IMG/VR virus record: IMGVR_UViG_2606217110_000019
Location: 1 to 4,087 of that record
DNA: 4,087 nucleotides
Strand: one strand, 5' to 3'
Source of the DNA: a virus
Lineage: Duplodnaviria; Heunggongvirae; Uroviricota; Caudoviricetes
The notes below the pieces were generated by a model, which saw nothing but the letters and a program-made list of their open reading frames with translations, searched no databases and was not told the DNA's origin. Below are positions 1 through 4,087 of the stretch, piece after piece (within the stretch, counting starts at the first letter, position 1; every line of letters starts with the position of its first letter). The translations under genes were made by a program, and so were the position numbers.

Positions 1-17
1 AAGATTATTGGCCGTTT

Positions 18-2014
<1,997 letters not shown>

Positions 2015-2020
2015 GAGTGT

Positions 2021-2025
2021 TCCCT
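2021..2025 (-). promoter_or_regulatory. Shine-Dalgarno (AGGGA) for istA
   Basis: Reverse complement of tccct at 2021-2025, with a 6-nt spacer to the ATG at 2012-2014. Confidence 0.5.
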
Positions 2026-2050
2026 TTGTGGTGTAGGAACCTTAAGGAAA

Positions 2051-2103
2051 CAACATGTTGGGTGGAGCGGACAATCCAAATGGTGAATTACTGTCTTATA
2101 TCA
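2051..2103. repeat. IS terminal inverted-repeat region, istA-proximal end, including a perfect 10-bp palindrome CAACATGTTG
   Basis: AGCGGACA at 2066-2073 is the complement of the TGTCCGCT motif; palindrome at 2051-2060. The reverse complement of about 2066-2090 matches window 18-39. The outer boundary is uncertain. Confidence 0.45.
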
Positions 2104-2334
2104 TTGGCGCTGACAACGCTGCTCGTTGAGTTGTGATTTTGCTTCTTCCAGTCCATCCAGCAAATCAGCGATAATATCCGCTTCCCGATGACGGATGTGA
2201 CGCTTAAACGCAGCAAGAGCCGCATCACAATCCCGTTCAGCATTTGGGCTGTCCGGGATAGCCTGATACCACGCCAGCGTCGACTGATAGTTTTGTGCTG
2301 CCTCACGAAGCGCCTCATAGTTAACCTCTCTCAT
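2101..2334 (-). CDS. Hypothetical small acidic phage protein (77 aa); last gene of the coupled cassette, ending at the IS junction
   Basis: ATG at 2332-2334 overlaps the TGA of the upstream gene (ATGA at 2331-2334). Predicted helical, acidic protein with no motif I recognise. The TGA stop at 2101-2103 lies at the predicted IS boundary, so the native C-terminus may be altered. Confidence 0.5.
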   Translation of the reverse strand: MREVNYEALREAAQNYQSTLAWYQAIPDSPNAERDCDAALAAFKRHIRHREADIIADLLDGLEEAKSQLNEQRCQRQ

Positions 2335-2627
2335 TGAGCCACCTCCTGATAAATCACCGCATGCCCCAGTTTCTCCGCCAGTGCCAGCTCTGCCTTAGCG
2401 CCCGCTGACCGCTGCCAGCCTTTCAGCATGTAAATCGCATCCACACAACGAATCATTGCCATGCAAATATCCATGTAGTGCGGCTGTGTCAGCCCGTCCG
2501 GAAGTACTGCCGGGTTCAAGACTGTATGCCCTTCCCGTTTCAGTTCCTCTTCCGCCTTGTGGAACGCCTCACGGTTGAAATTTTTATACCCGGTCATTGG
2601 ACCGGCAATATAAACTCTCACCCTCAC
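2331..2627 (-). CDS. DUF4406 / nucleoside 2-deoxyribosyltransferase-like small phage protein (98 aa)
   Basis: N-terminal VYIAGPMTG motif resembles the Y-x-AGP nucleoside-binding motif of the NDT-like fold; a Glu-rich C-terminal segment (GAKAELALAEKLG) may hold the catalytic Glu. Starts with GTG at 2625-2627, overlapping the upstream TGA (GTGA). Family assignment is from memory, not a search. Confidence 0.65.
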   Translation of the reverse strand: MRVRVYIAGPMTGYKNFNREAFHKAEEELKREGHTVLNPAVLPDGLTQPHYMDICMAMIRCVDAIYMLKGWQRSAGAKAELALAEKLGHAVIYQEVAQ

Positions 2628-2941
2628 TCCTGAACTCTCCTGTCGAAATAAACGTAGTTATTCACTGTGCGCAACGGCATTCCAAATTTTCTGGCGATTT
2701 CTCTCCTGGGTACGCCATGCTGATGCAGCTGTCGCGCCAGTTCAATATCACTCTGCGGATATTTTGTTGACTGGTGATAATCACCCCGTAACATCAGGCT
2801 GACACCCAGTTCCCGCGCTTTCGTTCTGACAGCATCACCTGTACGACCGGTCAGCCTCCCAATGCTTTCGACCGTCATCGTTCCCGCACACTGCCGGAGT
2901 ATCATGATTTCAGCCTCGTACCACTTCTTCCAGCCACTCAC
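2624..2941 (-). CDS. Small phage HTH DNA-binding protein (105 aa; possibly 93 aa from an internal ATG)
   Basis: C-terminal HTH-like segment [21 protein letters not shown] and a second candidate, [25 protein letters not shown]. The GTG at 2939-2941 overlaps the TGA of the upstream gene; an alternative ATG at 2903-2905 is preceded by GAGG. Confidence 0.6.
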
Positions 2942-3699
2942 CGCTGCAGCTCTCCGGTCGCGGTAATATCACGAAGAATATCCCGGTGCTTGTTCAGCTC
3001 CCGCAGCGCGGCGCAGACTCGTTCCCACTTCTGGACATGACTTTTCGCCCGACGCAGTTCGAGGTTTGCCATATGCAGCGATGGTAAAATCAGGTCATCC
3101 GCTCGCGTTTCAGTAAACGATGGCAGCGACTGCACAATGCCCGCTACAGTTTCTGTTTTAATTTCTTCCTGTGTTGCGGCTTCCCGGACTGGTAACGCAA
3201 CACCTGCTGGCTGAGGAAAGGCCTTACCATCATTTTCCGTTACCGATGCTGCTTTCGGCTCTGCTGGTAAATTACCGCCCGGCATGCAGTAACGAAATTT
3301 ACCGCTCTGATTAACGCGTGCCAGCCGCCCCGTTGCAGTTACCACCGCCAGCGTGGAAGCAACCTTGCGAGTACTGATGCCGAACTTACCCGCCAGTTCT
3401 TCACACGTTTTAGCCCCATCCTGACCGATAAACTCAATCATCATGTCTGCTGTAACTTTTTGTTCGACCTCCCCGGTCAGCATATCCTGTGCTTCAGATT
3501 TTACTGGCCGCTCTTCGGTTACCAGGGATTCACCTTCGCCAGCCAGAAACCAGGTGTGACCAGTTTTATCAACGACGCCATTTCTTTTGAGTTCCCACAG
3601 CTCGTTGAGAACCTCTTCACGACTGATATCAAGTCGCGCGGCCAGTTCTACCGATGTGGCTTTTCCCATTGCTTTCAGTGCGTCAAAAACGGTTTCCAT
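2938..3699 (-). CDS. Phage protein with two winged-helix-like modules (DUF1627-like, 253 aa)
   Basis: ATG at 3697-3699 with a strong GGAGG Shine-Dalgarno 8 nt upstream. Two similar wHTH-like segments ([30 protein letters not shown] and [33 protein letters not shown]) separated by an acidic linker. The DUF1627 resemblance is recalled, not searched. Confidence 0.75.
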
Positions 3700-3707
3700 T
3701 AAAATTT

Positions 3708-3712
3708 CCTCC
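3708..3712 (-). promoter_or_regulatory. Shine-Dalgarno (GGAGG) for the 253-aa gene
   Basis: Reverse complement of cctcc at 3708-3712, 8-nt spacer to the ATG; lies in the 21-bp gap after the dnaC-like stop. Confidence 0.55.
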
Positions 3713-3720
3713 GGACAAAA

Positions 3721-4087
3721 TTACTTCACAACCCTCAGGTGTCTGACATTCGAACGCCAGCTCTCCCAGTTAAAATTCACCCAGCGACCACCGTTCATGA
3801 CCATGCGGTCCATCACACGCTCGCCAAGAAGCGTACTCATCGCTACGTGGTTCAGGTTCGTCAGCATTCCGACACTACGCATCGAAGCCGTTCTGCGGTC
3901 GACTATCTGGTTCAGTGTGACCTGCTCGTTGCGCGTATCCCGCTGCATTCCGATTTCATCCAGGACAAGCAGGTCAACATCACACAACCCCTGTAAAAAT
4001 TTTTCGCCTGAGTTTTTGTTGTCGTAGCTGTTGTGTAACGCCAGCATCACATCAGCCACCGTTATCACAATCACGCTGCGACCTTTC
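3721..4087 (-). CDS. dnaC: DnaC-like replicative helicase loader, C-terminal part (5' end lies beyond the window)
   Basis: Translation ...KGRSVIVITVADVMLA...DVDLLVLDEIGMQ...IVDRR...GMLTNLN...LGERVMDRM...WVNFNWESWR is closely collinear with the C-terminal half of E. coli DnaC (Walker B, sensor region, conserved C-terminal tail). The frame stays open to the window edge; TAA stop at 3721-3723. Confidence 0.88.
   Translation of the reverse strand, partial: KGRSVIVITVADVMLALHNSYDNKNSGEKFLQGLCDVDLLVLDEIGMQRDTRNEQVTLNQIVDRRTASMRSVGMLTNLNHVAMSTLLGERVMDRMVMNGGRWVNFNWESWRSNVRHLRVVK

Follow-up and report, generated by a model that had tools for sequence, protein, structure and literature searches.

The four-gene stretch examined here has its closest described counterparts in lambdoid phages and prophages. 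In lambda, the same position, from the replication genes to the late regulator, is taken by P, ren, ninB to ninI, and Q; the ren-nin genes are packed by 4-nt stop/start overlaps like those of our locus, and such overlaps make up 7 of the 11 junctions from O through Q. The Rac prophage of Escherichia coli K-12 (ydaU-ydaV-ydaW) and Rac-SA53 (ydaW-lygF-rac19-ead) share the operon layout itself: an O-like gene, a DnaC-like helicase loader, DUF1627/YdaW, and then small accessory genes, among which are DUF4406 (rac19) and one that is Ead-like, with 87–90% DNA identity to our sequence over ydaW and DUF4406. They differ from it in that Rac-SA53 has the Ren-like lygF (DUF977) where our locus has a two-HTH gene, in that K-12 YdaW lacks the C-terminal domain, which is deleted in the Rac copy, and in that the Ead-like gene is here cut by an insertion sequence, ISEc62. 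In most relatives a Ren-like gene (DUF977, phrog_142) occupies the position of the two-HTH gene inside the block. Regarding function, lambda Ea22, which like P22 Ead has the Pfam Ead_Ea22 N-terminal domain also found in our Ead-like gene, is pro-lysogenic (PMC7093339, PMC10834534), and a fragment of K-12 YdaW is reported to block RcaT, the toxin of retron-Sen2, when over-expressed (bioRxiv 10.1101/2020.06.22.160242). Our literature search found no functional study of DUF4406, DUF977, or lygF, and a direct test of function is reported for none of the four proteins considered here, as the first-pass annotation had surmised.

The window, that is, the whole stretch of DNA analysed, is the entire draft contig JNMR01000099.1 (4087 bp). 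Very probably, the locus is part of the long early-right operon of a lambdoid prophage of the Rac/Qin type, from an ETEC-like lineage of E. coli, and its ORFs are independently assorting accessory genes rather than parts of one machine. At the DNA level the region matches Rac-SA53, Rac, and Stx/PPompW prophages, and positions 2116–4087 are identical at 1971 of 1972 bases (99.9%) to an intact prophage in strain 100248, where the full operon context is present. The gene order of the operon would include, in sequence, a cro-like gene, ydaT, the O-like gene, the dnaC-like gene, and ydaW. In the window, the 3' part of the helicase-loader gene lies at 3721–4074 on the minus strand (dnaC-like, ydaV type; phrog_50 DnaC-like helicase loader, E 8.7e-40); its 5' part falls beyond the contig end, and the intact relative has the full 248-aa gene (L002 10606–11352). 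A 21-nt spacer (3700–3720, minus strand), which carries the GGAGG Shine-Dalgarno sequence of the DUF1627 gene, separates the loader from four minus-strand ORFs at 2938–3699, 2624–2941, 2331–2627, and 2101–2334, all of which we confirmed. The location in a variable accessory stretch 3' of the replication genes was correctly recognized in the first-pass annotation, as was the absence of any core phage gene among the four; against the Nin families (NinB to NinI), Pfam and PHROG searches gave no match for these proteins, and NCBIfam returned no informative family for them. Scans of the window for Rfam families, tRNAs, tandem repeats, and other repeats revealed nothing relevant, and no RNA family was found inside the four-gene block.

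The block ends where it does because of an insertion. Positions 1–2115 (minus strand) are ISEc62, a member of the IS21 family (PF00665, PF22483, PF01695), with 99.6–100% identity to annotated ISEc62 copies; the family membership is upheld by the presence of both the istA transposase (842–2014) and the istB helper ATPase (48–845). The contig end falls inside the element, so that its far end and the DNA beyond lie outside the window, and identity to the intact prophage is lost at base 2115, which marks the junction. The fourth ORF straddles this junction. Its 77 aa combine 73 initial codons from an ead/Ea22-like gene of 153 aa (2116–2334, minus strand; residues 1–73 of WP_001209475.1 in L002) with four codons encoded by the IS, CQRQ, followed by a TGA stop (2101–2115, minus strand), as established by junction mapping. 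The chimeric ORF scores 31.4 bits against PF13935 (cut-off 27); the intact 153-aa relative reaches 46.7 bits. The complete Ead/Ea22-like coding sequence is thus absent: codons 1–73 of 153 are present and the remainder is replaced by ISEc62. What had been described as a gene for a small acidic protein is therefore an artefact of IS insertion, and the same chimeric 77-aa ORF was found on one other contig, which likewise ends in the IS. Unlike lambda Ea22 and P22 Ead, which belong to the exo-xis, early-left region, the gene of our window sits in the early-right operon, would encode 153 aa if intact, and has only 73 native codons left. The insertion inactivates it and cuts it off from the genes next in line in the operon of the intact relative. 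There, the same-strand chain runs at least four genes past the four considered here: the Ead/Ea22-like gene is followed by a 118-aa zinc-ribbon protein, DUF7167, two ORFs, and then hokD, DUF968, and RusA. The 3' boundary of the apparent cassette is created by the IS, and its 5' boundary is arbitrary.

The stop/start tetranucleotides on which the cassette had been proposed are present (GTGA at 2941–2938, GTGA at 2627–2624, and ATGA at 2334–2331), yet not every overlap in the chain holds equally well. The first is real, since GTG 2941 is the sole possible start upstream of the invariant W7 and E11 in the alignment of the HTH family; the 93-aa call made by PGAP for this gene in strain 100248 is too short in comparison, and the gene is mis-started in this way in some genomes. 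The second is ambiguous, as the DUF4406 gene may start at GTG 2621: most of its homologues start at the equivalent residue, an AGGAG lies 5 nt upstream, and such a start would leave a 2-nt gap and no overlap. Nor is there one strong ribosome-binding site at the head, as had been claimed: each of the four starts is preceded by a Shine-Dalgarno sequence of its own (GGAGG, GGAGA, AGGAG, and AGGAGG), embedded in the end of the preceding ORF. Tight packing does not stop at the four genes: in the intact relative, their neighbours on both sides are likewise joined by overlaps of 4 to 23 nt or by short gaps. The overlaps are the usual close packing of such operons and nothing unusual. No promoter- or terminator-like site was found on the minus strand inside the block, and, judging from the relatives and from this lack of internal signals, one transcript would run through all these genes after derepression. 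The four are not the single unit that had been suggested: the last is cut by the IS, and the chain is longer in the intact relative.

The gene next to the loader (2938–3699, minus strand) encodes a 253-aa protein of the DUF1627/YdaW family (PF07789, 322.2 bits, cut-off 28.1, residues 91–245; phrog_630, E 5.5e-136). Two weak Pfam HTH matches, at residues 4–50 and 87–135, bear out the earlier guess of a double wHTH protein. The layout consists of a first wHTH (about 1–55), a linker, a second wHTH (about 85–140), a Pro/Ala-rich linker, and a conserved C-terminal segment (about 185–250), and this architecture is held in alignment with relatives down to 22% identity; K-12 YdaW is 60% identical over residues 1–154. 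The family is small: among 1.84 billion representatives, it forms 188 clusters at 50% identity. Sequence searches of the PDB gave only generic wHTH or Z-alpha-like matches. Similarity to lambda Ren is weak and at the level of the wHTH: the second wHTH matches the Ren family (phrog_142) at E 4.4e-6 with no single stretch passing alone, hhalign gives a probability of 31% with lambda Ren and of 4.6% with LygF, and BLASTP against Ren found nothing. The gene follows the loader directly in all 76 IMG/VR loci, 45 with a lambda-P-like and 31 with a DnaC-like loader. In a profile search of contigs with a narrow alignment (10 loci), it does so also in E. ruysiae, Salmonella, and Enterobacter, while Serratia has one gene between; downstream of the distant homologues none of the other three genes is found. 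Alone of the four, DUF1627 holds a fixed place, at the 3' edge of the replication module, whether the loader is of P or DnaC type.

The second ORF (2624–2941, minus strand) encodes a bipartite HTH DNA-binding protein of 105 aa. The AF2 model (pLDDT 78) has two three-helix domains, in keeping with the HTH label it had received. Foldseek gave no significant match (best E 0.018, TM about 0.3); its top matches, the Tc3 transposase DBD and Sulfolobus Cbp1, likewise have two three-helix HTH units with a flexible linker, a similarity that is not significant and allows no claim of family membership. In a sequence search of the PDB we obtained a weak match to 2lvs only. We rejected homology of this protein to Ren/DUF977: it does not match phrog_142, and its hhalign probability against lambda Ren is 0.6%, while LygF, used as a control, matches phrog_142 at E 1.8e-48. 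The 105-aa gene is one of two alternatives for the slot after DUF1627, the other being the Ren-like DUF977/LygF; in a prophage 98.6% identical to ours, a DUF977 gene has taken its place and no other gene is exchanged. Homologues of the 105-aa gene in other genera occur after recE/recT and next to xis-int.

The third ORF (2331–2627, minus strand; 98 aa, or 96 aa from GTG 2621) belongs to DUF4406 (PF14359, 130.4 bits, cut-off 22). Its AF2 model (pLDDT 91, pTM 0.84) retrieves NDT 2a0k in Foldseek (E 3.5e-5, TM 0.74), as well as DNPH1 and MilB, so the NDT-like character proposed at first reading proved right, and the protein can with confidence be assigned a minimal NDT/DNPH1-like fold. The model superposes on members of the NDT / DNPH1 (Rcl) / MilB-BcmB N-glycosidase superfamily at TM 0.69–0.79. 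Within DUF4406, a Tyr of the first strand, an Asp of helix 2, and an S-x-G-x-x-x-E-L motif do not vary. The invariant residues of the family alignment, Y6, D53, and E80, resemble in spacing and motifs Y24/D80/E104 of DNPH1 and Y7/D62/E88 of CtNDT (from PDB titles) when compared by eye; their assignment as catalytic is putative, since the DUF4406 profile did not align significantly with human DNPH1 in hhalign. By sequence, the protein matches no solved structure in the PDB. With about 96–98 aa, against 130–160 aa in the superfamily, it must lack the C-terminal elements of the latter. Elsewhere, DUF4406 is fused to dATP/dGTP diphosphohydrolase and other hydrolase domains (phrog_12019, phrog_15484). 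From the fold, and from other phages in which the domain is fused to MazG-like dNTP pyrophosphatases, the most likely role of DUF4406 is to cleave off or transfer the base of a (deoxy)nucleoside or (deoxy)nucleotide. The gene is also present in a P22-like early-left region and in a P2-like prophage (Edwardsiella, Klebsiella).

The four genes are not always together. All four in order were seen in 1 of 55 informative IMG/VR loci; in 41 of these DUF1627 is followed by DUF977, and in the other 14 by the HTH gene. Of 51 loci with the HTH gene, 48 have DUF1627 before it and 39 have DUF4406 after it. Among 5,426 complete E. coli genomes, prevalence is unequal (DUF1627 in 2,778, DUF4406 in 1,211, and the HTH gene in 771), and a contiguous HTH-DUF4406-Ead block abutting the 3' end of DUF1627 is present in about 360. 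Within E. coli prophages, this strong local linkage could reflect function and not shared ancestry alone. Co-occurrence across independent lineages was not observed for the components of the putative multi-gene system: the HTH gene is exchanged singly, the contexts in other genera differ, and prevalence is unequal. Independent occurrence in unrelated contexts, which the first-pass annotation had itself named as grounds for refutation, is what we observed. The system had been called undescribed, but its arrangement already stands in those roughly 360 genomes, and the records inspected carry annotations for its genes: DUF1627, DNA-binding or hypothetical protein, DUF4406, and ead/Ea22-like.

What, then, might hold these genes together? 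A single dedicated, co-translated accessory system with cooperating parts, serving host takeover, anti-defence, or superinfection exclusion, would account for the tight packing without internal signals and for the recurrence of the arrangement in about 360 E. coli genomes; it also accords with the reported action of the YdaW fragment on RcaT and with the membership of the slot partner DUF977 in a Ren-like exclusion family. We nevertheless consider it very unlikely, since each gene occurs without the others, the fourth member is here a truncated fragment, the same packing is found in the neighbours on both sides and is the norm in lambda, and the only matches among the models of PADLOC-DB 2.0 are weak ones of DUF1627, at the level of the wHTH (Csa3/CARF HTH). 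A narrower proposal, by analogy with retrons, would pair DUF1627/YdaW with DUF4406, the wHTH protein controlling or neutralizing the NDT-fold enzyme. The toxin blocked by YdaW is itself NDT-like, effectors of the retron-Sen2 type join an NDT-like to a DNA-binding domain (PMC7736814), and DUF4406, with its NDT fold, lies two genes downstream of DUF1627 in the window. Yet a variable gene lies between the two in every case; prophages of Edwardsiella and Klebsiella carry DUF4406 but no DUF1627; DUF4406 has no match among the retron effectors of PADLOC; and DUF1627 occurs without DUF4406 in many loci, with more than twice as many genomes carrying the former. Such a pair is extremely improbable.

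The fixed position of DUF1627 raises the prospect that it is an accessory of the replication module, for example modulating O, the loader, or DnaB at the phage origin, with the three downstream genes alone being cargo. Its invariant place after a P-type or DnaC-type loader, in IMG/VR and across genera, its two DNA-binding wHTH domains, and the small size and narrow distribution of the family are all consistent with such a role, which we nonetheless judge unlikely: the Rac copy of K-12 has lost the C-terminal domain, lambda ren is an accessory gene in the same position, and its occurrence beside two unrelated types of loader speaks against any specific protein partner. Quite unlikely, in our estimation, is that the stretch 3' of the helicase-loader gene in Rac/Qin-type phages is a counter-defence hot spot. 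There, DUF1627/YdaW may stand beside every loader type because it neutralizes sensors or effectors of abortive infection in the host, a role suggested by its reported action against the NDT-type toxin of retron-Sen2; the next slot would be filled interchangeably by anti-exclusion genes, either the Ren-like DUF977 or the two-HTH protein, and DUF4406 would serve the phage as an N-glycosidase whose target is a nucleotide that host immunity uses or depletes.

Overall, independently assorting accessory genes of an early-right operon remain our preferred reading, and the four-gene region is a common, already annotated mosaic accessory stretch of E. coli prophages. Being an ordinary early-operon stretch whose last gene is cut by an IS, it is no self-contained new system; part of its apparent cassette structure is an artefact of IS insertion, seen on a draft contig that is short, and the region as found matters little. 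A few details are of modest practical use, the mis-start of the 105-aa HTH gene by PGAP among them. DUF4406, which is widespread in phages, combines the NDT fold and an intact predicted catalytic set in a very small protein. Of the four genes, DUF1627/YdaW alone merits a directed experiment, because of its tie to the loader across loader types and genera and because of the published retron-blocker result.

The four minus-strand ORFs at 2101-3699 most likely represent one segment of a mosaic early operon whose genes are independently exchangeable. The first-pass annotation had read them as a single co-translated unit headed by one strong ribosome-binding site, and as a candidate undescribed system. 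The ORFs and their stop/start tetranucleotides are present, and the block does look accessory, non-core and poorly characterised; yet the second overlap is ambiguous, the single ribosome-binding site is wrong, the fourth gene is an insertion artefact, and a discrete four-gene system is not what we find.

The window corresponds to the entire 4,087-bp contig JNMR01000099.1 of draft assembly GCA_000700445.1, with no excerpting, and its lower end therefore falls inside a repeat. Positions 1-2115 are 99.6-100% identical to many copies of ISEc62, of the IS21 family, with istB (48-845) and istA (842-2014) both on the minus strand. Positions 2116-4087 match the chromosome of strain 100248 at 1971/1972 bases, identity ending at base 2115, which places the IS/prophage junction at 2115/2116. 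In that strain the fourth gene is intact and encodes a 153-aa Ead/Ea22-like protein (WP_001209475.1), whereas the 77-aa ORF of the window (2101-2334, minus) comprises codons 1-73 of this gene plus Cys-Gln-Arg-Gln-stop from the IS terminus; PF13935 (Ead/Ea22-like) is matched by both, in the ORF by its N-terminal part. Thus, what was previously proposed as a "small acidic protein" is a truncated piece of this gene, and the cassette owes its 3' end to the insertion. ISEc62 breaks the early-right operon here, and the contig ends within the IS, which leaves any target-site duplication and the rest of the prophage outside the window; the same insertion site was not found in any complete E. coli genome of the collection. 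Lambda Ea22 is pro-lysogenic, and its structure is partly solved (PMC7093339, PMC10834534). The C-terminal tail of the intact Ead-like protein, ...AGIRIKGEEHGNKTRG (8758-8810 in L002, the prophage locus of strain 100248), also ends several otherwise differing Ead-like proteins and an extended DUF977 reading frame (phrog_37408, phrog_19884), and its coding sequence extends into the start of the gene that follows; possibly it is a conserved sequence at a mosaic boundary.

The gene order of L002 provides the setting. A cI-like repressor is followed, divergently, by cro-like, ydaT, O-like and DnaC-like genes, then DUF1627, the HTH gene, DUF4406 and the Ead-like gene, a 118-aa zinc-ribbon protein, DUF7167, two further small ORFs, hokD, DUF968, RusA, DUF1133, a methyltransferase, tRNAs and lysis genes; dicB, an exonuclease gene, xis and int lie on the other side. 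This content is that of a Rac/Qin-type lambdoid prophage, and partial matches in the phage collection include Rac-SA53, Rac and Stx/PPompW phages. No promoter- or terminator-like site was found on the minus strand within the four-gene block, and scans of the window for RNA families, tRNAs and repeats returned none. Given operon genes on both sides and no such internal site, the four ORFs appear to be an internal stretch of a single long early-right operon. In L002 a RelB/RelE pair adjoins the repressor gene (13565-14043) and hokD lies further down the operon (6750-6905), so the intact prophage carries several toxin-antitoxin modules.

The proposed translational coupling holds in part. GTGA at 2941-2938, GTGA at 2627-2624 and ATGA at 2334-2331 all read as claimed, and the first and third overlaps are real. 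For the first, between DUF1627 and the HTH gene, W7 and E11 of the HTH protein are invariant among 39 aligned homologues, and the window offers no start codon upstream of W7 other than GTG 2941. In strains 100248 and TW10722, RefSeq/PGAP starts the gene at an internal ATG and calls a 93-aa product (window 2906-2941; L002 9509-9790); that call is therefore too short, and the true protein is the 105-aa form. The second GTGA is present, but the DUF4406 start is ambiguous: most aligned homologues begin "MKIY", equivalent to GTG 2621, and AGGAG stands 5 nt before that codon; with this start the HTH gene and DUF4406 would be separated by a 2-nt gap instead of overlapping. Since each of the four starts has its own Shine-Dalgarno site (GGAGG, GGAGA, AGGAG and AGGAGG), the single strong site at the head is incorrect. 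Such 4-nt overlaps are not unusual: they occur at 7/11 junctions from lambda O to Q, and in L002 genes both upstream and downstream of the four are tightly packed (4- to 23-nt overlaps or short gaps). Within the IS, too, istA and istB share a 4-nt GTGA stop/start overlap (842-845); the element is unrelated, lies a few hundred bases away and carries an identical packing signal.

Do the four genes travel together? IMG/VR neighbourhoods were anchored gene by gene, counting loci with enough flank. Among 55 informative loci anchored on DUF1627, DUF977 comes next in 41, the HTH gene comes next in 14, and the full four-gene order occurs in 1. Of 54 DUF4406 loci, 49 have DUF977 before that gene and 5 have the HTH gene there. 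The HTH gene (51 loci) has DUF1627 before it in 48 and DUF4406 after it in 39. Contexts differ by genus. Edwardsiella DUF4406 belongs to an early-left block of P22-like type (RdgC, Ead, Eai, x, DUF4406, exonuclease ... int), that of Klebsiella is part of a P2-like prophage, flanked there by Dam and the A replication gene, and Salmonella and Pantoea HTH homologues follow recE/recT-like genes, adjoining xis-int; downstream of distant DUF1627 homologues (27-39% identical; Serratia, Salmonella, Enterobacter, Buttiauxella) the other three genes are absent. Among 5,426 complete E. coli genomes, DUF1627 occurs in 2,778, DUF4406 in 1,211, the HTH gene in 771 and a contiguous HTH-DUF4406-Ead(N) block in 360. 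With such unequal prevalence and varied neighbours, the window arrangement is one common combination among several. Strain SHP24 carries a DUF977 gene in place of window 2631-2971, which holds the HTH gene, on a backbone 98.6% identical on both sides and with identical O and DnaC proteins. Thus, neither a single unit nor a discrete undescribed system is sustained: the HTH gene is swapped alone, the genes occur independently in unrelated contexts, a pattern that the first-pass annotation had itself named as refuting its proposal, and the fourth is IS-truncated. The replacement (L246, the swap prophage, 3016-3459) is clean: its breaks fall within the terminal codons of DUF1627 and shortly ahead of where DUF4406 begins, which suggests recombination at gene junctions.

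The HTH protein (2624-2941, minus) is confined to Enterobacterales (157 clusters), and its AF2 model (pLDDT 78) shows a pair of three-helix HTH units with a floppy linker between them; its best structural neighbours, Cbp1 and the bipartite DNA-binding domain of Tc3, are not significant. DUF977/LygF is the Ren-like family (phrog_142, E 1.8e-48), sharing the C-terminal ECRQS..M.RVLA.Y motif of lambda Ren; a Ren-like identity for the HTH protein was rejected on comparison with lambda Ren.

DUF1627 (253 aa, 2938-3699, minus) scores 322 bits against PF07789, and two stretches, residues 4-50 and 87-135, match HTH profiles weakly. Its layout of wHTH, linker, wHTH, Pro/Ala-rich linker and conserved C-terminal segment is kept in alignments down to 22% identity; the family is small, with 188 clusters at 50% identity out of 1.84 billion representatives. 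Both wHTH domains (residues 2-57, 86-128) weakly match Z-alpha domains by sequence (ADAR1 2l54, poxvirus E3-like 1oyi and 8i9j; E 0.085-0.75), probably generic wHTH similarity. The one conserved feature of the block is the position of DUF1627 immediately after the helicase-loader gene, here DnaC-like (3' part, 3721-4074, minus): a loader lies directly upstream in 76/76 IMG/VR loci (lambda-P-like 45, DnaC-like 31). E. ruysiae, Salmonella and Enterobacter show the same order, and in Serratia one gene separates the two. Lambda ren holds the same position. The placement of DUF1627 could reflect either a replication-linked role or a favoured accessory-gene site. K-12 YdaW is 60% identical to DUF1627 over residues 1-154 and is without the C-terminal domain; its over-expressed gene is a reported "blocker" of the retron-Sen2 toxin RcaT (bioRxiv 10.1101/2020.06.22.160242), RcaT-type effectors combining NDT-like and DNA-binding domains (PMC7736814). 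We consider it quite unlikely that the stretch next to the loader gene is a hot spot of counter-defence with YdaW at its head. In an E. ruysiae locus (L250 5004-7073) a 689-aa P-loop ATPase, weakly matching ORC/CDC6-like and STAND NTPases, replaces the small accessory genes just downstream of DUF1627 and is a possible defence-type cargo gene.

DUF4406 (98 aa, 2331-2627, minus) matches PF14359 at 130 bits. Its AF2 model (pLDDT 91, pTM 0.84) resembles nucleoside 2-deoxyribosyltransferases, DNPH1 and the CMP N-glycosidases MilB/BcmB (TM 0.69-0.79), and Y6, D53 and E80 are invariant in alignment. H50-x-x-D53 and S74-x-G-x-x-x-E80-L parallel H77-x-x-D80 and S98-L-G-V-G-Y-E104-L of human DNPH1 (sequence confirmed), an equivalence set by eye and topology because hhalign to DNPH1 was not significant. 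In other phages the domain is fused to a MazG-like dATP/dGTP diphosphohydrolase and to further hydrolase domains, which points to a role in nucleotide metabolism. In ETEC TW10722 and ~20 similar genomes DUF4406 is a C-terminally truncated pseudogene (L245 3508-3789) with unrelated genes behind it, among them one for a Doc-family toxin, another sign of regional decay and rearrangement.

Overall, the segment would comprise a replication-adjacent double-wHTH protein, a two-HTH protein alternating with a Ren-like gene, a minimal NDT-fold, predicted N-glycosidase-like enzyme and a broken Ead/Ea22-like gene. All four genes are already annotated in the records inspected; both these families and their arrangement are thus already known as annotated.
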